A stretch of DNA of 64,000 bases from a virus (lineage: Duplodnaviria > Caudoviricetes), in the IMG/VR virus record IMGVR_UViG_3300020598_000119. One strand, written 5' to 3'. Within the stretch, counting starts at the first letter, position 1; each line of letters starts with the position of its first letter. The notes under the pieces were generated by a model. That model did no database searches and was not told the DNA's origin. It was given only the letters and a program-made list of their open reading frames with translations. Below, in pieces: positions 7,991 through 50,493 of the stretch. Position numbers and translations under genes: made by a program.

Positions 7991-8040
7991 AAAAAAAAAG
8001 AAGAACCCTCGTTAGCGGTCGGCCAGCGAGGGTTCTTCTT
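7991..8040 (-). terminator. attenuator terminator of tRNA array 1
   Basis: AAGAAGAACCCTCGCT...AACGAGGGTTCTTC followed by T9 on the minus strand. Confidence 0.9.
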
Positions 8041-8067
8041 GGTCTGATCGAAGGATTTACTTAAGCG

Positions 8068-8229
8068 TTAAAATCCTTCTTTCGCCAATACAGCCCGCTG
8101 ACCGCAACCCAGATACGGGAGCGGTAACAAATGGGGGGGATGAGGCAGAGCGGAAACGGCACGCGTCAGGGCGACGCGAGCAGAAACTGCCGCAACCTTT
8201 CCCTGTACTGTCTGTGCCGAAGCGTTCAT
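8068..8229 (-). CDS. leader peptide of the Leu/Pro/His/Tyr tRNA array (53 aa)
   Basis: MNASAQTVQGKVAAVSARVALTRAVSALPHPPHLLPLPYLGCGQRAVLAKEGF*, with a GAGGA RBS. Confidence 0.85.
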   Translation of the reverse strand: MNASAQTVQGKVAAVSARVALTRAVSALPHPPHLLPLPYLGCGQRAVLAKEGF

Positions 8230-8303: not shown

Positions 8304-8465
8304 TATGATTTTTGCAATTTCTGATTTTTTATTCCGAGGACGTCCGATGCCGATGAATCATCTCTGAGGCGGATGGCCATTGGATGGCAAAAAGGGGCTG
8401 CAAGAAAATTGTTGGTTTCCAGCAACCGCAGGCACTATCATGAAACAAAATATTGGAGTTTTTCG

Positions 8466-9404
8466 ATGGCAATAGATTTACCTACCGCAGCCATGGCGCT
8501 TATCACCGCACTGGAGAGCGTCACTGGTGTTCAGATTGCTATTCTCGAACGTCGTGATGACCCGGCTGAATTCTGGGCCAGAACCGCAGCAATTCTATGT
8601 GATAAAACAAAACAGAATTGGTGCAGTGAGGACGTTCGCTTCATGACGTCCAATACGGAACTGATGGGGATGTCTCATATAATCGAGTACAACTTCGATG
8701 GGAAGGGGACACGTAGGGTATGCGCACTCCTGCCGCCCATTGCGAACATCGATCCCAATTTCATCGCCAATGCATATGGTTCACCGTATCCGACTATCTA
8801 CGATTTGCCATCGAGTGCGGAAACGGCAAGTTGGCTGATGCTGTATCATGCGGCGCACTGCCTCGACACAGCTCTGTCCGACCAGGAAGAAAACCGAGCT
8901 GTCGCCTTTGCGACTCTAGGGCTTTCGTTGATGGGAGGAGACTACAAGTTTCTGCCAGGAAGGGTACGCTCATCTGCTCGCCAGATTGCGGCCATGACAG
9001 GTAAGGCATCTGGATATTGGGCCGCAGGCACTGGCGAACGCATTCTGATGGATCTCTGGAAGACTGAAACTGGGGACAGGCTCCGGCGCGAGTACGGATG
9101 CTATCCAATAGTGAAACAGAGCAGCTCGATTGATATCGAACGGATTGCACGCGATTCACGCATTCCAGAAGGACAAAACTGCGCTGCAGAAGCAGGTGGG
9201 AACGGTGGTGGCATGCGTACGAACCCGCAGGGCACAATCACGGACGCCAACCTGTGGCTTTGGCTATATGGGCCTCAAAGTGGAGGAACGTCATCACCAA
9301 GGCTTGGCGTGCCCCCGAAGGACTACTATCCGTTTAAGACCTTCAAGGACTTCAGCACCGCCGCCTCTTACGTATTAGAGACAGCCAACAAGCTAGCGCA
9401 GTGA
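8466..9404 (+). CDS. hypothetical protein
   Basis: Start at MAIDLP after GGAG; HAAHC motif resembles a degenerate HExxH. Confidence 0.65.
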   Translation: MAIDLPTAAMALITALESVTGVQIAILERRDDPAEFWARTAAILCDKTKQNWCSEDVRFMTSNTELMGMSHIIEYNFDGKGTRRVCALLPPIANIDPNFIANAYGSPYPTIYDLPSSAETASWLMLYHAAHCLDTALSDQEENRAVAFATLGLSLMGGDYKFLPGRVRSSARQIAAMTGKASGYWAAGTGERILMDLWKTETGDRLRREYGCYPIVKQSSSIDIERIARDSRIPEGQNCAAEAGGNGGGMRTNPQGTITDANLWLWLYGPQSGGTSSPRLGVPPKDYYPFKTFKDFSTAASYVLETANKLAQ

Positions 9405-9847: not shown

Positions 9848-9940
9848 ATGTTCGTTCAGTCGTCCCAACAGCAATCCAGCCAGTCGAGTTCATCAAGCTC
9901 GAACGCGGTGCTGTGCGCGGTGACTGATCCGAAAATCTGA
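9848..9940 (+). CDS. leader peptide of the Ser/Gln tRNA array (30 aa)
   Basis: MFVQSSQQQSSQSSSSSSNAVLCAVTDPKI*, with an AAGGAG RBS. Confidence 0.9.
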   Translation: MFVQSSQQQSSQSSSSSSNAVLCAVTDPKI

Positions 9941-9967
9941 CCTCAATATCAGATCAAAAGGTTTCAG

Positions 9968-9992
9968 AACCCGCCCAAAAGGCGGGTTTTTT
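9968..9992 (+). terminator. attenuator terminator of tRNA array 2
   Basis: AACCCGCC-CAAAA-GGCGGGTTTTTT, 6 nt before the first tRNA. Confidence 0.9.
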
Positions 9993-9998
9993 GTATGC

Positions 9999-10090
9999 GG
10001 AAACATGGCTGAGAGGCTTAAAGCAGCGGTTTGCTAAACCGTCAGGGAGGTAAAATACCCTCGGGAGTTCGAATCTCCCTGTTTCCGCCA
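9999..10090 (+). tRNA. tRNA-Ser(GCT)
   Basis: Loop TTGCTAA, long variable arm, GCCA end. Confidence 0.94.
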
Positions 10091-10131
10091 CGAATTCGAA
10101 TTTTCTGTCCGCAGGGAATTCAAACAAATAC

Positions 10132-10219
10132 GGAGCTGTGACCGAGTGGCTTAAGGTGGCAGTCTTGAAAACTGATGCGGCTAACCCCGCCGTAGGTTCG
10201 AATCCTACCAGCTCCGCCA
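10132..10219 (+). tRNA. tRNA-Ser(TGA)
   Basis: Loop CTTGAAA, long variable arm, GCCA end. Confidence 0.94.
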
Positions 10220-10253
10220 CAATTTTGGCTTATTTATTTATGGGAGAAGGGCC

Positions 10254-10457
10254 ATGACAGTACACGAAATAAATGCTCCGGTTGATGCCGTAGACGCAGC
10301 TGTCATGGCCCTTGTGGAAGCCCATGTTGATAAGGCTCAACAGGCCAGAGAACGATCCAATCTGAGGGGATGGTTCGTTGGCCAGACGATGAAGCAGCTT
10401 AATGGAACTGCAGAGCGTCAAACAGTCGAAATCGCAGTGAATAAGGCACTGCAATAA
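10254..10457 (+). CDS. stand-alone GatB/YqeY C-terminal tail-like mini-protein
   Basis: LRGWFVGQTMKQLNGTA resembles the GatB tail motif GFFVGQVMKxxxGKA; RBS present. Confidence 0.7.
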   Translation: MTVHEINAPVDAVDAAVMALVEAHVDKAQQARERSNLRGWFVGQTMKQLNGTAERQTVEIAVNKALQ

Positions 10458-10492
10458 TAGGAGTTTCGGCCTAATAAATGGGCCAAAGAATT

Positions 10493-10582
10493 GGAAAGAT
10501 GGCAGAGTCCGGTTGATTGCACTCGCCTCGAAAGCGAGCAAGCCGCAAGGCTTCGGGAGTTCAAATCTCCCTCTTTCCGCCA
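10493..10582 (+). tRNA. tRNA-Ser(CGA)
   Basis: Loop CTCGAAA, GCCA end. Confidence 0.94.
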
Positions 10583-10588
10583 GCACGT

Positions 10589-10662
10589 TGGGGATTAGTT
10601 TAATGGTAGAACGGCGGACTCTGAATCCGTTGGTCCTGGTTCGAGTCCAGGATGCCCAGCCA
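10589..10662 (+). tRNA. tRNA-Gln(CTG)
   Basis: Loop CTCTGAA, U1-A72, one acceptor mismatch, CCA. Confidence 0.9.
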
Positions 10663-10679
10663 AGAATTACGAAATAAAT

Positions 10680-10754
10680 TGGGGCGTCGCCAAGCGGTAA
10701 GGCATCGGTTTTTGGTACCGACATGCGGAGGTTCGAATCCTCCCGCCCCAGCCA
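10680..10754 (+). tRNA. tRNA-Gln(TTG)
   Basis: Loop TTTTGGT, U1-A72, CCA. Confidence 0.94.
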
Positions 10755-10778
10755 TTTTCGTAGTTAATTCGTTAAATT

Positions 10779-10866
10779 GGAGCCGTGGCAGAGTGGTTGA
10801 ATGCACTCGCTTGGAAAGCGGGCAGACCGCAAGGTCTCGGGAGTTCGAACCTCCCCGGCTCCGCCA
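10779..10866 (+). tRNA. tRNA-Ser(GGA)
   Basis: Loop TTGGAAA, GCCA end. Confidence 0.94.
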
Positions 10867-10888
10867 ATTATTAAATAAGGAAAAATCC

Positions 10889-11125
10889 ATGAGCAATGAG
10901 TCGATTAACATCAAAGAACACGTCACTGCAGGACCGTGCACACTCGTTTGCGCGCGAGCAGGCAATCTCTGGTATCGAACTGCTCTTGGATTTGAATTCC
11001 CAGTGCCTTTCTCGGATATGGGTGACGCGACTTTCTCGTCCGAGGAGAAAGGCATGATGCTCATGCGCTACATCCGAAAGCACAATGAAACGATCACTGC
11101 TGCGCGACAACAACAAGTCGCGTAG
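10889..11125 (+). CDS. small hypothetical protein within the tRNA array
   Basis: AAGGA RBS; sequence includes LWYRTALGFEFPVPFSDMGDATF...MRYIRK. Confidence 0.7.
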   Translation: MSNESINIKEHVTAGPCTLVCARAGNLWYRTALGFEFPVPFSDMGDATFSSEEKGMMLMRYIRKHNETITAARQQQVA

Positions 11126-11161
11126 GCAGTCGTCTTTCTCTCATTAGACGACTTTTGATGA

Positions 11162-11236
11162 TGCCGAGTCGTCTAATGGTAGGATCTGAGCCTTTGAAGC
11201 TACAGGACGTGGGTTCGACCCCCACCTCGGCATCCA
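11162..11236 (+). tRNA. tRNA-Gln(TTG), atypical
   Basis: TGCCGAG/CTCGGCA-TCCA, loop CTTTGAA, irregular anticodon stem, U73. Confidence 0.75.
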
Positions 11237-20463: not shown

Positions 20464-20490
20464 ATGAATTGGTGGCGCTCAGTCAACTGA
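20464..20490 (+). CDS. Trp leader peptide (MNWWRSVN; may start further upstream in frame at 20434 or 20422)
   Basis: Tandem TGG TGG upstream of trpS, with alternative stems downstream. Confidence 0.65.
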   Translation: MNWWRSVN

Positions 20491-20617
20491 GCGGCCCATA
20501 ACGTATGCACGTTTAAATTTCAAACACGTAGACGAATGGGACCGTTCCGCAGGGAAGGGCTTCTATTCGAATTCCGACATTGCGGGCGGTCCTCAATCAT
20601 CAGGAAAGGACCATCCA

Positions 20618-21625
20618 ATGTCTACCATCAATAGCGCCCCAATCGCACTAACGGGCGACCGTCCGACTGGACCTCTTCATCTCGGTCACTACGCAGGCTC
20701 TCTGCAGCAGCGACTTCGTCTTCAGGATGAAGGATATCGTTGCTTCGTTATGATTGCCGACATGCAGGCGTACACCGACAATGCAGACAACACCGCGAAG
20801 ATCAGAGACGCCATTCCGCAGGTGGTCTCGGACTATCTCGCAATCGGTCTCGATCCTAGTAGGACAACAATCTTCCTGCAGTCGGCCGTGCCTGAACTCG
20901 CAGAGCTGACGATGCTCTATATGAATTTCATCACGGTGTCCCGTCTGGAGCGAAATCCGACGATCCGCGATGAACTCAAGTTGCGAGAATTCGAGCGTGA
21001 TATCCCTTCAGGCTTCCTGTGCTACCCAGTATCGCAAGCGGCCGACATAACGGCGTTCAAGGCCACTTGTGTCCCAGTTGGAGGTGACCAGCTCCCAATG
21101 ATTGAATTGGCTCAGGAAGTCGCCAGAAAGATCAACCGCGCAGGCGGCAGGGAAATTCTGCCAACGCCAAAGAGCCTCCTGTCCAAGGTCACACGCCTTC
21201 CAGGAATCGACGGCAAAGCGAAGGCGAGCAAGTCTCTTGGCAACGCCATATTCCTTTCGGACAGCCAGAAAGAGGTAAAGGACAAGGTCATGGCGATGTA
21301 CACCGACCCCAACCACATCCGCGTCAGTGACCCCGGACAGGTCGAAGGAAATGTCGTGTTTTCGTACCTGGACGCCTTCGAAAACGACCAGGAGAAGGTT
21401 GAAGACCTGAAGAGACGGTATCGTGCGGGCGGCTTGGGCGATGTCACAATCAAGAAGGAGCTGATCTCATCCCTTGAACGGGTCATGATGCCTATTCGTG
21501 ACCAGCGGGCGGCAAATGATGCCGATTACAAAGACATCATCCGTCAGGGATCGCAGGAAGCAAGAGAAGTTGCGGCGCAAACGCTTGCTGATGTCAAAGA
21601 CGCACTCGGTGTGTTCTCAATCTAA
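20618..21625 (+). CDS. trpS: tryptophanyl-tRNA synthetase
   Basis: TGDRPTGPLHLGH, YPVSQAADI, VPVGGDQ, KASKS (KMSKS variant) and MYTDPNH. Confidence 0.96.
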   Translation: MSTINSAPIALTGDRPTGPLHLGHYAGSLQQRLRLQDEGYRCFVMIADMQAYTDNADNTAKIRDAIPQVVSDYLAIGLDPSRTTIFLQSAVPELAELTMLYMNFITVSRLERNPTIRDELKLREFERDIPSGFLCYPVSQAADITAFKATCVPVGGDQLPMIELAQEVARKINRAGGREILPTPKSLLSKVTRLPGIDGKAKASKSLGNAIFLSDSQKEVKDKVMAMYTDPNHIRVSDPGQVEGNVVFSYLDAFENDQEKVEDLKRRYRAGGLGDVTIKKELISSLERVMMPIRDQRAANDADYKDIIRQGSQEAREVAAQTLADVKDALGVFSI

Positions 21626-43889: not shown

Positions 43890-46376
<2,487 letters not shown>

Positions 46377-46478
46377 TTAAATATCCCAGATATTGTGACG
46401 ATAATAATGTGAGGCGTCAACAATATTGCAGGAAAAATGCGGCTGCGATTTATTTAAATGAAATCGAAAAAATATCGT

Positions 46479-46507
46479 TTGACAAGTGCTAGCCGACCAT
46501 TCATAAA
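46479..46507 (+). promoter_or_regulatory. sigma70-type promoter of array 3
   Basis: TTGACA-N17-CATAAA with upstream A-tracts. Confidence 0.75.
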
Positions 46508-46558
46508 GGGGACAAGCGATTGGGCGGATGCCCGTCCATTCAACTTTGAGAGAGTACA

Positions 46559-46633
46559 ATGCGCAACACGAGAACGACATGGACATGTTGGAGAACCTAC
46601 AGGGGCTTCCCTGGAGGCGGAGACGTCTGTTGA
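46559..46633 (+). CDS. leader peptide of the Trp/Thr/Cys/Arg tRNA array (24 aa)
   Basis: MRNTRTTWTCWRTYRGFPGGGDVC*, with a GAGAGAG RBS. Confidence 0.88.
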   Translation: MRNTRTTWTCWRTYRGFPGGGDVC

Positions 46634-46660
46634 CTCGTTGAGCGCAGTTACCGCAACCAA

Positions 46661-46694
46661 GAAGCCTCGAATGAAAATTCGGGGCTTTTATTTT
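46661..46694 (+). terminator. attenuator terminator of tRNA array 3
   Basis: AAGCCTCGAA-TGAAAA-TTCGGGGCTTTTATTTT. Confidence 0.88.
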
Positions 46695-46710
46695 GTCTGG
46701 AATTCAGTTT

Positions 46711-46785
46711 AGGGGTGTAGCCAAGTGGTTAAGGCAGCGGTCTCCAAAACCGCCATCGGGGGTTCGAGTCCCTCCACCCCTGCCA
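46711..46785 (+). tRNA. tRNA-Trp(CCA)
   Basis: Loop CTCCAAA, GCCA end. Confidence 0.94.
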
Positions 46786-46797
46786 CCGAAAGATAAG

Positions 46798-46965
46798 ATG
46801 ATGGTAAATAGACTTTTGGAGTTGATGCTTGAAGGAGAAACAGATAACAGTATTCTTCAGGATGCGTGGGATAAAATGCAGGAGCAAAAGAGGCTTGCCC
46901 TAGAGGAAATTGGTCAGAGAATACAGAATGGAGAGCCTCTCACTGTTGAGTTTGACTTGGATTGA
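46798..46965 (+). CDS. small acidic hypothetical protein within the tRNA array
   Basis: 55-aa ORF filling the spacer between tRNAs. Confidence 0.45.
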   Translation: MMVNRLLELMLEGETDNSILQDAWDKMQEQKRLALEEIGQRIQNGEPLTVEFDLD

Positions 46966-46978
46966 TACAAGTAATTCT

Positions 46979-47054
46979 GCCAAATTAGCTCAGTTGGTAG
47001 AGCAGCGCTTTCGTAAAGCGAAGGTCGGGAGTTCGAGTCTCTTATTTGGCACCA
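46979..47054 (+). tRNA. tRNA-Thr(CGT)
   Basis: Loop TTCGTAA, ACCA end. Confidence 0.93.
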
Positions 47055-47171
47055 GAGGTCCGCTATAAAATGCGGATTCCGCGCAGCCTAATTAGTTGCG
47101 CCATGGCTTTTCGGGCGGTTGAGCCGGATAATCAACTGCCCCGCGAATATAAGCGTCGTGAGACGCGATGT

Positions 47172-47247
47172 GCCGTTGTAGCTCAGCTGGTAGAGCGCCT
47201 GATTTGTAATCAGGATGTCACGGGTTCGATCCCTGTCGGCGGCACCA
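47172..47247 (+). tRNA. tRNA-Thr(TGT)
   Basis: Loop TTTGTAA, ACCA end. Confidence 0.94.
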
Positions 47248-47326
47248 TAAAATCTGGCGTGCGGTTGTTAAAGGATTAAAAGCCTTTCCCCGCCAGTAGG
47301 AATAAAACTGGTAGCAATGCCAGTAC

Positions 47327-47400
47327 GGCCTGGTGGCGGAGTGGTTACGCGGCGGACTGCAAATCCGCTTACCCGAGTTCGATTCTCGGTCAGGCCTCCA
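47327..47400 (+). tRNA. tRNA-Cys(GCA)
   Basis: Loop CTGCAAA, U73, CCA. Confidence 0.94.
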
Positions 47401-47430
47401 AATAAATATCTAGTGCATCTGATGCACTTT

Positions 47431-47506
47431 GGTCCCGTAGCTCAGTGGAAAGAGCAGGAGCCTTCTAAGCTCAAGGTCGTAGGTTCGAATCCTACCGGGA
47501 TCGCCA
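47431..47506 (+). tRNA. tRNA-Arg(TCT)
   Basis: Loop CTTCTAA, CCA. Confidence 0.93.
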
Positions 47507-47536
47507 CCGTTCATACTTTGGGAAATCCAAAGTATT

Positions 47537-47611
47537 GTCTCCGTAGCTCAGTGGAAGAGCAATTTCCTCCTAAGAAATAGGTCGCAGGTTCGAATCCTGC
47601 CGGAGACGCCA
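47537..47611 (+). tRNA. tRNA-Arg(CCT)
   Basis: Loop CTCCTAA, CCA. Confidence 0.93.
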
Positions 47612-47778: not shown

Positions 47779-48927
47779 TTAAGTCCCTTCTATCCAGTCG
47801 GAAAAATCTTTGACCAATGGCTCCAACAGCGGCGCGACGTCCATTTTCGAGGCCATCGATTTGTATGCAGGAACCTCCAGCAACGCACGATGGCCAACTT
47901 CTGCGCCGATCAGGTTGCCAAGAACCGCTGCAGTGGAGTCGCTATCTCCCGAATGGTTCACAGCAATTTCGAATTTTCGCTCCAAGGGCACGTCTGCAAG
48001 GGCGGCCAAAATAGCAATGGCAAGGCATTCATGTCCTACCCACCCGCCACCGAGCACCTCAACGTGTTCAGGAGCGATATCAGAGATCGGGGCGATCTTC
48101 ATTACCGAAAGAATGAGCGTTCGCATCAGGCCAGCGTTCTCTACGCCCCTAAGGTATTCCTCAAGCCCAAAGACAGCTGCCTTCAGGCTTTCCCCCTGAG
48201 CGAGCCTATTGACCAGCCAACTTAGCGCCCCAGCAGGAATATAGCCCATTGGGTGCCCATGGGTCATAGCGGCCGCCTTGGCTCCGAGCATGAAACAGTG
48301 CGCGGGATCGGAAAGATTCAGGAAACCTATGGGGGCAACCCGCATGACGCCTCCGCACCCCATGGAGTCGTTTAGCGGGCGCTCAATGGTGCCGATAGCA
48401 CCAGCCTTGCAGGCCGACAGGCAGGTCATTCCAGGTGCTCTGTTGACCCTCATCAAATGGGAATGCCCTAACCGCCCAACAGGCACCTGCGAAGGGTTAG
48501 ATTGTTGGGTTATATACCAGTCCAGATAGGCGTCACGAATACAATCCAATGAGCGCTCTGCTGTGAGGCGATCTCCCCATCGTTGATGAGCCACCAAAAG
48601 GCCCTCCGCAGTAAACATGGTCATTTGCGTGTCGTCACTAACCAGACAACGCTCCCAGGTTGGGAACACGAGTGAAATCGCACGCATAGAGACACCACTC
48701 GGGCCAAATTTTTCCCGAATGGTAGAAATGGAATCAAACTCAACAGCGTAACCAAGCGCATCACCAACCGCCCCCGCATAAAGGCAACCGTAAATCCGGT
48801 CATTCAATGAAAGAGGATGAGGTAGTGCGGCCTCATCCTGCGGAGCAACTTCAATGCTGTCATCTTTCTTGGACAGGAAGATTGATTTCAGTTTTTTGAT
48901 CACGTGACGCCTCCGATCGTGCGTCAA
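47779..48927 (-). CDS. ADP-ribosylglycohydrolase (DraG/ARH family)
   Basis: GAVGDALG, SDDTQMT, GCGGVMR, THGH and NHSGDSDST. Confidence 0.92.
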   Translation of the reverse strand: MTHDRRRHVIKKLKSIFLSKKDDSIEVAPQDEAALPHPLSLNDRIYGCLYAGAVGDALGYAVEFDSISTIREKFGPSGVSMRAISLVFPTWERCLVSDDTQMTMFTAEGLLVAHQRWGDRLTAERSLDCIRDAYLDWYITQQSNPSQVPVGRLGHSHLMRVNRAPGMTCLSACKAGAIGTIERPLNDSMGCGGVMRVAPIGFLNLSDPAHCFMLGAKAAAMTHGHPMGYIPAGALSWLVNRLAQGESLKAAVFGLEEYLRGVENAGLMRTLILSVMKIAPISDIAPEHVEVLGGGWVGHECLAIAILAALADVPLERKFEIAVNHSGDSDSTAAVLGNLIGAEVGHRALLEVPAYKSMASKMDVAPLLEPLVKDFSDWIEGT

Positions 48928-49047
48928 TTTTTACAGATTATTTCAGATGGATCAAATTGCTCATTGAACTATCTGAACAAATATGAGAAAGGAATTAGGT
49001 CTCCGTATTGCTGCGGCTGCTGAACCCATCAATTCTGGAGAACTATC

Positions 49048-50493
49048 ATGAAAATCACTGGCACTTTGCCTGCGAACAGTCGCGTCCGTGTTTCCGGTCA
49101 CGACGTTCACACTATCACTTCGTATAACGAGCCTGAACGACACAAGAGGCTGGCGCTTGATGATCTGTCGAATGCCATTCCGACGCATGATGCGTTTGAA
49201 CAAGCCGCAGCGGCAGTCAAAAGGATTGTGACCACACCGGACTTTCACGCTGGCAAGCCAGTTCCGGTCGGCGTAACCATGTCCATTGAAGGCGCTGCGA
49301 TGCCACATGTCATCGGCAATGACATTGGATGCGGCATGCGAATGGTCGTACTTAACGACGTCACCGAGGACGATCTGGCCGTCAGCGCGCTGGATGGCCA
49401 TTTGCGTCATGTCCATTTCCAAGGCAGTAGAAACATTGCGCTCTCTGGAAGACAGCGCCACGCAATCCTCAAGGAAGGCATCCCAGGGCTGCTGGAAGCG
49501 CTGGCCGGGGACGCGAAGGGGCTATTGGGCAACCTAGAACTAACAGCCGCGTGGAGAGACGTCAGCAGGACCTGTGATGATGGCTTCTTTCCGTCTGTAG
49601 ACATCGATAACGGCTTTCTCGAATACGGAAACCTCACTGACGGATACCGTTACGATGCCATCCTAGGCTCAATCGGTGGAGGAAATCACTTCGTCGAACT
49701 CGGTGTCATCGACAAAATCGTAGACAGCACGTTCGCTATGGCTGCTGGCGTAAAAGCTGGTGCCGTCGTCATGGTCGTTCACTCTGGCTCCCTCGATTTT
49801 GGCCAATATGTCGGCTCAACGACGAAAGGAAGAATGCGAGGACTGGCCAGACATGGCGATCAGCGCATCCTTTCTGCAGAGCACCACACAGACGAGCTAC
49901 AGCGCTTCCTCAACGGCCAAGCTAACGCGGTTAATATCGCTTTTGCAAACCGCTTTCTGATCGGCCTAGCGACCATCCATGCGGTCGAGAAGGCACTGGG
50001 GAAGCGAGTGGACGCAAGATTGATCTATGACGCTCCTCACAACGTCATCTGGTCAGATGGTAACACTTACATGCATCGAAAGGGGTCATGTCCAGCACGA
50101 GGCCAAGGCTTCCAGCATGGTTCGCCTTACGAGTGGCTCGGAGAACCCGTCATCCTGCCAGGCTCCATGGGAGACGGAACATGGCTACTAAGAGGGCTTG
50201 GCAATGAGGAGACGCTAAAGTCTGCAGCTCATGGAGCGGGACGACGCCTATCGCGCCAAGAAGCACGAGCCGAGGCCAATCATCCTGCTGACCTCCAGGT
50301 GATTACACCCATCGATCTCAATGCTCCTGAGGTGCGTTGCAGAGCGGATATCGTTCGTGAAATCGTCGGCCGATTGAAGGAAGAATCTCCTGATGCTTAT
50401 CGGCCAATCGAAAATGTTGTCGCTCCAATGGAGGACACTGGAATGGTCAACAAGGTTGCCAAAGTGCGTCCGGTCATCACCGTCAAAGGATGA
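49048..50493 (+). CDS. rtcB: RtcB-family RNA ligase
   Basis: PDFHAG, DIGCGM, GGGNHF, HSGS, HN, HRKG and HGAGR. Confidence 0.92.
   Translation: MKITGTLPANSRVRVSGHDVHTITSYNEPERHKRLALDDLSNAIPTHDAFEQAAAAVKRIVTTPDFHAGKPVPVGVTMSIEGAAMPHVIGNDIGCGMRMVVLNDVTEDDLAVSALDGHLRHVHFQGSRNIALSGRQRHAILKEGIPGLLEALAGDAKGLLGNLELTAAWRDVSRTCDDGFFPSVDIDNGFLEYGNLTDGYRYDAILGSIGGGNHFVELGVIDKIVDSTFAMAAGVKAGAVVMVVHSGSLDFGQYVGSTTKGRMRGLARHGDQRILSAEHHTDELQRFLNGQANAVNIAFANRFLIGLATIHAVEKALGKRVDARLIYDAPHNVIWSDGNTYMHRKGSCPARGQGFQHGSPYEWLGEPVILPGSMGDGTWLLRGLGNEETLKSAAHGAGRRLSRQEARAEANHPADLQVITPIDLNAPEVRCRADIVREIVGRLKEESPDAYRPIENVVAPMEDTGMVNKVAKVRPVITVKG

Follow-up and report, generated by a model that had tools for sequence, protein, structure and literature searches.

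In a window of 64,000 nt (i.e. the whole stretch of DNA that was analysed), a block of six tRNA genes, array 3, is preceded by a short leader ORF that carries a run of codons read by the downstream tRNAs, and by an intrinsic terminator directly in front of the first tRNA gene. We consider it probable that this arrangement constitutes a ribosome-mediated leader-peptide transcription attenuator, which gates a supernumerary tRNA block; the block would be located on a large element of plasmid type that belongs to a soil alphaproteobacterium. This reading is based on the anatomy of the region, the codon statistics, the alternative folds and the conservation of the design with compensatory change, and from these we infer the promoter, the translation of the leader, the kinetic character of the switch and the physiological signal. 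The new point is the application of attenuation to tRNA genes, since the regulated genes are six tRNAs and not biosynthesis enzymes or synthetases; no published case of leader-peptide attenuation of tRNA genes was found in the literature searched, in which subscription journals were thinly covered.

The elements of the region follow each other on one strand (Table 1), and the coordinates given in the original prediction, among them those of the antiterminator strand (46602-46609) and the GGAGGC motif (46613-46618), are all exact; the control run is located at 46568-46603 and the terminator arm at 46661-46668. The putative promoter was missed by a consensus scan because its -10 element ends in A, and the same layout, TTGAC(A/T/G)-N17-CATnnn, also precedes arrays 1 and 2 and the leaders of relatives. 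In the case of the Shine-Dalgarno-like stretch, the relatives have AGGA, GAGGAAG, AGGAG or GAAGG, located 4-10 nt before the ATG. A short ORF with a ribosome-binding site, for which translation is predicted, is thus found 3' of the promoter-like site, as in leader-peptide attenuators, and an intrinsic terminator is found between that ORF and the first regulated gene. The distance from the terminator to tRNA-Trp is 16 nt, a stretch that contains no promoter-like site and offers no room for one. The upstream neighbour gyrB is divergent and the terminator therefore serves no other (protein) gene. A search with the Rfam leader families (Thr_leader, Trp_leader, His_leader, Leu_leader and others) gave only tRNA matches at the gathering score, and with E-values up to 10 positions 46450-46715 gave just weak hairpin look-alikes; the Rfam model for the T-box (specifier loop and T-box sequence) had no match at the locus.

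Table 1. Features of the array 3 region and of the leader regions of the two other arrays in the window.
Feature	Position	Strand	Basis or remark
gyrB, upstream neighbour, divergent	43890-46361	- (opposite to leader)	ORF list
Promoter-like site: TTGACA (46479-46484), 17-nt spacer, CATAAA (46502-46507)	46479-46507	+	read from sequence; putative
Shine-Dalgarno-like purine-rich stretch GAGAGAG, 4 nt 5' of ATG	46548-46554	+	sequence; weak in the window
Leader ORF, 24 codons and stop (ATG at 46559, stop 46631-46633)	46559-46633	+	homologous ORFs at 11 other related loci
5' hairpin of the untranslated leader (about 46560-46584 with about 46621-46646)	46560-46646	+	MFE fold
Effective sensing run, codons 4-12, nine consecutive cognate codons of downstream tRNAs	46568-46594	+	window statistics and constrained folds
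ACC TAC AGG, tail of the 12-codon run, outside the stall-competent zone	46595-46603	+	constrained folds
Antiterminator 5' strand GGGGCTTC; partner 46661-46668 (GAAGCCTC)	46602-46609	+	constrained folds
Intrinsic terminator: 13-bp stem 46660-46689, GAAA loop, T-run	46660-46694	+	folds; dG about -19 kcal/mol
tRNA array 3, six genes	46711-47611	+	ARAGORN; Rfam tRNA scores 62-71 bits
tRNA-Trp(CCA)	46711-46785	+	ARAGORN, Rfam
tRNA-Thr(CGT)	46979-47054	+	ARAGORN, Rfam
tRNA-Thr(TGT)	47172-47247	+	ARAGORN, Rfam
tRNA-Cys(GCA)	47327-47400	+	ARAGORN, Rfam
tRNA-Arg(TCT)	47431-47506	+	ARAGORN, Rfam
tRNA-Arg(CCT)	47537-47611	+	ARAGORN, Rfam
Array 1 leader region	7991-8229	-	codon-matched leader and terminator, TTGACA-N17-CATnTA site
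Array 2 leader region	9849-9996	+	codon-matched leader and terminator, TTGACA-N17-CATnTA site

The decoding set of the array was defined by conservative wobble rules, according to which the six tRNAs read 7 codons. The control run (ACG AGA ACG ACA TGG ACA TGT TGG AGA ACC TAC AGG) contains 10 cognate codons out of 12, 9 of them consecutive, and ACC and TAC are, as originally stated, the only codons in it without a dedicated tRNA in the array. Scanning of all 12-codon segments in six frames, both in the window (127,930 segments) and in 280 kb of the near-identical genome G001 (559,930; together ~690,000), returned this run as the single highest-scoring one, at a binomial expectation for such segments of 0.001 and 0.006, respectively; the next best unrelated place scores 8. 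When leaders and arrays were compared in matrices, every leader obtained its top score with the codon set of its own array (10 in the case of array 3, versus 3-6 otherwise), and the regulatory codons in this respect correspond to what the regulated genes encode, as they do in leader-peptide attenuators. In the long ORFs of the element AGA and AGG make up 12% and 8% of the Arg codons.

The untranslated leader folds as a long 5' hairpin plus the terminator (MFE; z = -3.6 versus 200 shuffles), and the hairpin, in the 1:2 role, would hold the interior of the antiterminator when the ribosome is absent. At equilibrium the full-length leader always keeps the terminator, whichever ribosome position is masked, and the switch would therefore have to be kinetic, like that of the classical attenuators. 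Because the masked folds of the full leader always retain the terminator, the RNA was folded without the terminator 3' arm, with a 28-nt ribosome mask placed at each codon. With the A site at any of the codons 1-11, the constrained folds have GGGGCTTC fully paired with 46661-46668 (8 bp, one of which is G-U), thereby closing a branched structure; with the A site at codon 12 (AGA) this antiterminator is reduced to 5 bp, and from codon 13 onward the pairing is gone. The stall-competent zone consists of codons 1-12, and thus all nine cognate codons (4-12) lie inside it, while ACC, TAC and AGG lie outside, the non-cognate ACC and TAC just 3' of it. A ribosome that continues as far as the stop codon would mask the interior of the antiterminator and so permit the local terminator hairpin. 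The proposed pairing of GGGGCTTC with the terminator 5' arm GAAGCCTC is hereby borne out in the folds, but the additional claim that GGAGGC pairs with the same arm did not hold, as the complementarity amounts to just 5 bp and is absent from every predicted fold; according to the model the switch would not need this second pairing.

The finding that a terminator arm can pair with anything upstream is common in shuffled sequences (P 0.1-0.6); such a generic count of arm sequestration is not discriminating and we therefore used a position-specific test instead. The position-specific pairing yielded P = 0.036 for the window and P 0.008-0.12 across eight folded leaders, values that are not independent because the sequences are related. 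In all eight the constrained folds predict an antiterminator that depends on the position of the ribosome and excludes the terminator, and in which the conserved pairing forms only when the ribosome is on the control codons. Although the terminator sequences differ, the 5' arm finds its partner every time in a segment at 42-54 nt from the ATG, immediately 3' of the control run; the paired strands have changed together across the folded leaders. A consensus of the eight leaders (MAFFT and RNAalifold) yielded no more than a part of the terminator, since the stems do not align in register, and formal covariation counts are hence thin.

The following sequence of events would connect these elements. 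Transcription would start at the TTGACA-N17-CATAAA site and a ribosome would translate the 24-codon leader. When codons 4-12 (Thr ACG/ACA, Arg AGA, Trp TGG and Cys TGT) are read fast, the ribosome would move over 46602-46650 and prevent the antiterminator, so that the 46660-46689 hairpin could form and transcription would stop 16 nt before tRNA-Trp. When any of these codons is slow, i.e. when the charged tRNA is scarce, the stalled ribosome would leave 46602-46609 free to pair with 46661-46668, no terminator would form, RNA polymerase would enter the six tRNA genes and the tRNA precursor would then be processed. The net effect would be a negative feedback, in which each block of tRNAs is produced once its own tRNA species become limiting for decoding.

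The distribution of the design was traced via the gyrase gene gyrB of the element, whose product shares only 59% identity with the GyrB of the host. A protein search yielded graded GyrB relatives (61-96% identity), and a tblastn search with GyrB and an ORF of unknown function (8373-9404) singled out four megaplasmids, namely pRlX5 of R. leguminosarum TP16 (55 tRNAs), pBSY19_1 of Bosea sp. RAC05 (24 tRNAs), pANAM02 of Bosea sp. ANAM02 (13 tRNAs) and the megaplasmid of M. extorquens AM1 (6 tRNAs). Other routes were less productive: a search with the element's GyrB against genome contigs was swamped by chromosomal GyrBs (at most 56% identity), the neighbouring ADP-ribosylglycohydrolase found in metagenome contigs only homologs of at most 45% identity, without related arrays, and blastn matches in phage and plasmid collections were confined to tRNA bodies. 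Among the 201 genomes of the family that were searched only G001 has a full-length match to the leader DNA, and ORF343 occurs in 1 of the 401 genomes that were sampled within the order. The block gyrB...bactofilin-gyrA is shared with the Bosea plasmids and most of the metagenome relatives, and a C5 methylase is added to it in most of the latter group of relatives.

The loci compared for array 3 numbered 12, i.e. the window, pRlX5 and ten metagenome contigs, with the GyrBs of the 11 others 61-81% identical to that of the window. All 11 others contain a Trp-Thr-Cys-Arg(TCT) array with 1-2 Thr genes, which in nine of the ten metagenome contigs is located beside gyrB. The leader ORF comprises 20-27 codons at all 12 loci and contains a Thr/Trp/Cys run that includes at least one AGA; a hairpin and a T-run follow it (identified in the relatives by folding in seven cases and by eye in four). 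The content of the leader tracks the content of the array also elsewhere. For instance, S, L, V, H, P and Y all occur in the leader run of the RAC05 array whose tRNAs include those for Pro, Tyr, Ser, Leu, Val and His, whereas the homologous array of ANAM02, which is without the Pro, Val and His tRNAs, has a run with only S, L and Y; Ala/Asn/Ile/Met arrays are preceded by A/N/I/M-rich leaders; and the leader of the Trp-Cys array of RAC05 has only a C-W core with CGN Arg codons on either side and no Thr run. At the latter locus (L196, on pBSY19_1) the strong hairpin is followed by ATGTCAGT in place of a T-run, so that it may not be an intrinsic terminator.

It had been claimed that the run covers each of the six tRNAs and that the choice of AGA and AGG over CGN points to the sensing of particular tRNA species. 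In the case of AGA both claims are supported. All 12 Trp-array leaders retain AGA in the control run and all 12 arrays carry tRNA-Arg(UCU), whereas leaders of Phe/Arg(ACG,CCG) arrays have CGT/CGG/CGA runs instead; moreover, the Phe/Arg array of RAC05 also holds Arg(TCT) and both its mini-ORFs contain AGA. The matching of AGA with tRNA-Arg(UCU) is thus supported by the sequence comparison, and the usage of AGA versus CGN fits a sensing of decoding by particular tRNA species. The coverage of the Thr, Trp and Cys tRNAs likewise stands. The claims fail in the case of AGG, which is codon 15, where according to the folds a stalled ribosome would cover the antiterminator strand, and which is retained in G001, pRlX5 and loci L203-L205, whose arrays are without tRNA-Arg(CCU). 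Since AGG is outside the sensing zone and is kept without its tRNA, the reading of one codon per tRNA does not apply to AGG and Arg(CCU), and their pairing looks incidental. In L203-L205 the TAC of the window is TGC (Cys), which is cognate.

In an unlikely alternative the same attenuator would respond to amino-acid starvation in the style of trp, thr and ilv; the codon choice would then only tune the sensitivity, and the induction of the tRNAs would be a by-product or serve another purpose. Stalling of a ribosome reports charged tRNA, which also drops on starvation, and there are a few leader codons that have no match in their array, namely an AGA in the Phe/Arg(ACG,CCG) leader of pRlX5 and a CGC at codon 2-3 of most Trp-array leaders. 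A tuning of sensitivity by codon choice is reported for classical attenuators (PMC1183508). Nevertheless, Thr, Arg, Trp and Cys have no common biosynthetic pathway, the codon set is that of the downstream tRNAs, the leader content shifts with the tRNA content between homologous arrays, and the division of Arg into AGA and CGN between two arrays mirrors exactly that of the tRNAs; furthermore, extra tRNA would not relieve a shortage of amino acid.

A second alternative, which we regard as very improbable, is that the small ORF encodes a functional Cys/Trp-rich peptide, or that the leader is a trans-acting sRNA of the rnTrpL/peTrpL type of Sinorhizobium, with a terminator that merely ends this small gene and tRNAs that are transcribed independently. 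Trans-acting leader RNAs and peptides are reported from a related genus (PMC6614838, PMC7298713), and the C-terminal G-x-P-x-G-G-x-x-C of the peptide is fairly conserved among closer relatives. The conservation of this tail, however, would be explained by the predicted antiterminator, which is formed by the same bases; independent transcription is at odds with the distance of only 16 nt, devoid of a promoter-like site, from the T-run to tRNA-Trp; and the rule of codon matching is obeyed also by unrelated leaders of other arrays. That a random short ORF and hairpin happen to precede the array is effectively refuted and its probability negligible: short ORFs and GC-rich hairpins abound, and a terminator arm finds some pairing partner in most shuffles, but codon runs such as this one are expected 0.001-0.006 times and the design is repeated in front of at least three arrays here as well as at the 11 related loci, as is evident from the codon scans, the leader-array matrices and the leaders and folds of relatives.

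The attenuator-like organization extends to the other arrays of the element. In the leader of array 2 (Ser/Gln tRNAs, 9999-11236) 15 Ser/Gln codons stand in a row, and its terminator ends ~2-4 nt short of the first tRNA; the leader of array 1 (Tyr/Leu/Pro/His, minus strand) has a 13-codon Leu/Pro/His/Tyr run and a terminator, and its antiterminator is predicted by the folds for stalls up to the last control codon. Homologous leaders for both arrays are present on pRlX5. Genome G001, which is 95-99% identical here, encodes 92 tRNAs, of which ~44 are located on the element in seven arrays within 130 kb, the remainder being an ordinary chromosomal set; the tRNAs of the element are a second, supernumerary set, and the identity between plasmid-borne and chromosomal isodecoders is 78-87%. 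The Phe/Arg arrays and other arrays of G001 also have matched leaders and terminators. The tRNA-Arg(CCT) gene (in segment 47507-47615 of the window) is shared by the window with a sediment-metagenome contig of 64 kb; in G001 (contig C2, 997920-998959) ~1 kb of other DNA takes its place and the leader is nonetheless identical.

Two variations on the organization were encountered in G001. On contig C2 (~936,200-936,600), 5' of the Phe/Arg array, and also at L192 and L195, there are two tandem mini-ORFs, the first of which contains R-R-R-F and is followed by a strong terminator, while the second starts with M-R-R-R-R-R and has a promoter-like site with an A/T-rich upstream element 3' of it. Three other arrays on C2 (Lys, Glu/Asp and a large mixed array; L016-L018) have a conserved promoter-like block, composed of an A/T-rich stretch, TTTTTGTTGTTGAC and a -10 element, which falls between the attenuator-like region and the first tRNA; array 3 is without it. 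Judged by its sequence, such a second promoter would bypass the terminators of the Lys, Glu/Asp and large mixed arrays, which counts against the attenuator reading.

The hardware predicted for array 3 comes closest to that of the multivalent enterobacterial attenuators, i.e. the leaders thrL (Thr and Ile codons) and ilvL of ilvGMEDA (Ile/Val/Leu). With these, and with trpL and hisL, it has in common the putative promoter, the mini-ORF with regulatory codons and the intrinsic terminator, as well as, by prediction, an antiterminator that is mutually exclusive with the terminator and set by the position of the stall. Unlike in thrL and ilvL, the codon mix of array 3 equals the set of codons that the downstream tRNAs decode, a rare Arg codon among them, so that the loop would feed back on tRNA supply. 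In the case of E. coli pheM-pheST, leader-peptide attenuation controls phenylalanyl-tRNA synthetase in response to a single amino-acid signal; the likeness lies in the control of a gene of the translation apparatus and in the response to charged tRNA, although there the gene is a protein-coding synthetase. T-box riboswitches similarly let the state of a specific tRNA control the read-through of a terminator before translation-related genes, but they bind uncharged tRNA directly and need no translation, whereas array 3 has an ORF with a Shine-Dalgarno-like stretch and no T-box match.

Parallels are offered by other tRNA arrays. The trn operon of Anabaena sp. PCC 7120 is described as a silent, supernumerary long tRNA array of horizontal origin that is induced on impaired translation and is co-regulated with, or adjacent to, rtcB; its control is ascribed to direct repeats in the promoter and a presumed repressor, with no mention of an attenuator, leader or terminator in that report (PMC8421152). 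It thus parallels array 3 in function and differs in its control via promoter repeats. The pMEGA megaplasmids of Enterobacteriaceae, which belong to another host clade, have >100 tRNAs in amino-acid-specific blocks that were proposed to act against tRNA-targeting defences; a regulatory leader or attenuator is not described in that preprint (bioRxiv 10.1101/2025.09.30.679422).

The surroundings of array 3 were inspected as well. Directly 3' of it (47779-50493) lie genes for an ADP-ribosylglycohydrolase (minus strand) and an RtcB RNA ligase (plus strand), the latter 1.4 kb from the array; in Anabaena this ligase is reported to be co-induced with the tRNA array (PMC8421152). A 55-codon ORF without a Pfam match is located between tRNA-Trp and tRNA-Thr(CGT) (46798-46965, plus strand); similar small ORFs occupy the Trp-Thr spacer at L202 and L203, and several relatives have small genes of 51-60 residues in the source gene table, which may be located in that spacer. 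The window further encodes gyrB and gyrA, a class I ribonucleotide reductase, DnaJ, a ClpB-like AAA protein, two C5 DNA methylases, an integrase, bactofilin, and pentapeptide-repeat and T5orf172 proteins. An 8-codon mini-ORF, M-N-W-W-R-S-V-N (20465-20491, plus strand), lies ~125 nt 5' of an ORF (20618-21625) that encodes a TrpRS-like class I aminoacyl-tRNA synthetase of the Trp/Tyr type (Pfam tRNA-synt_1b). By its sequence this mini-ORF looks like a Trp-sensing leader of an element-borne synthetase, which would imply a pheM-like logic for the element's own synthetases; no clear T-run terminator was seen by eye at this mini-ORF.

With respect to expression, two soil metatranscriptome runs contain parts of the locus as contigs, the leader ORF falling into a gap between them that carries no weight in either direction. 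One contig of 433 nt from such an RNA library covers 46651-47083 with zero mismatches, i.e. from the terminator arm via tRNA-Trp and the spacer into tRNA-Thr, and is compatible with a read-through precursor; contigs show no ends, however, and the sequence may also stem from DNA carry-over.

Taken at a higher level, we lean slightly towards the view that a family of megaplasmid-type elements in the Hyphomicrobiales (Rhizobium, Bosea and uncultured members) carries a near-complete second tRNA set, divided into modules that each lie behind a codon-matched attenuator, and that these, together with leader-controlled synthetases and RtcB, make up a self-regulating back-up decoding system whose modules would be switched on upon depletion of host isoacceptors (e.g. 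by anticodon nucleases). The same design is found on plasmids of cultured, tractable bacteria (R. leguminosarum TP16 pRlX5, Bosea sp. RAC05 and ANAM02) and the hypothesis is therefore directly testable. It bears on the silencing and induction of the tRNA arrays that plasmids, phages and ICEs carry and that were acquired horizontally, for which the one studied case, that of Anabaena, points to a promoter-bound repressor. If true, the element would possess a direct, module-by-module feedback sensor of decoding capacity, a textbook mechanism would extend from metabolic genes to the decoders themselves, and the tRNA sets of mobile elements would be tied to the arms race over tRNA-cleaving toxins and defences.
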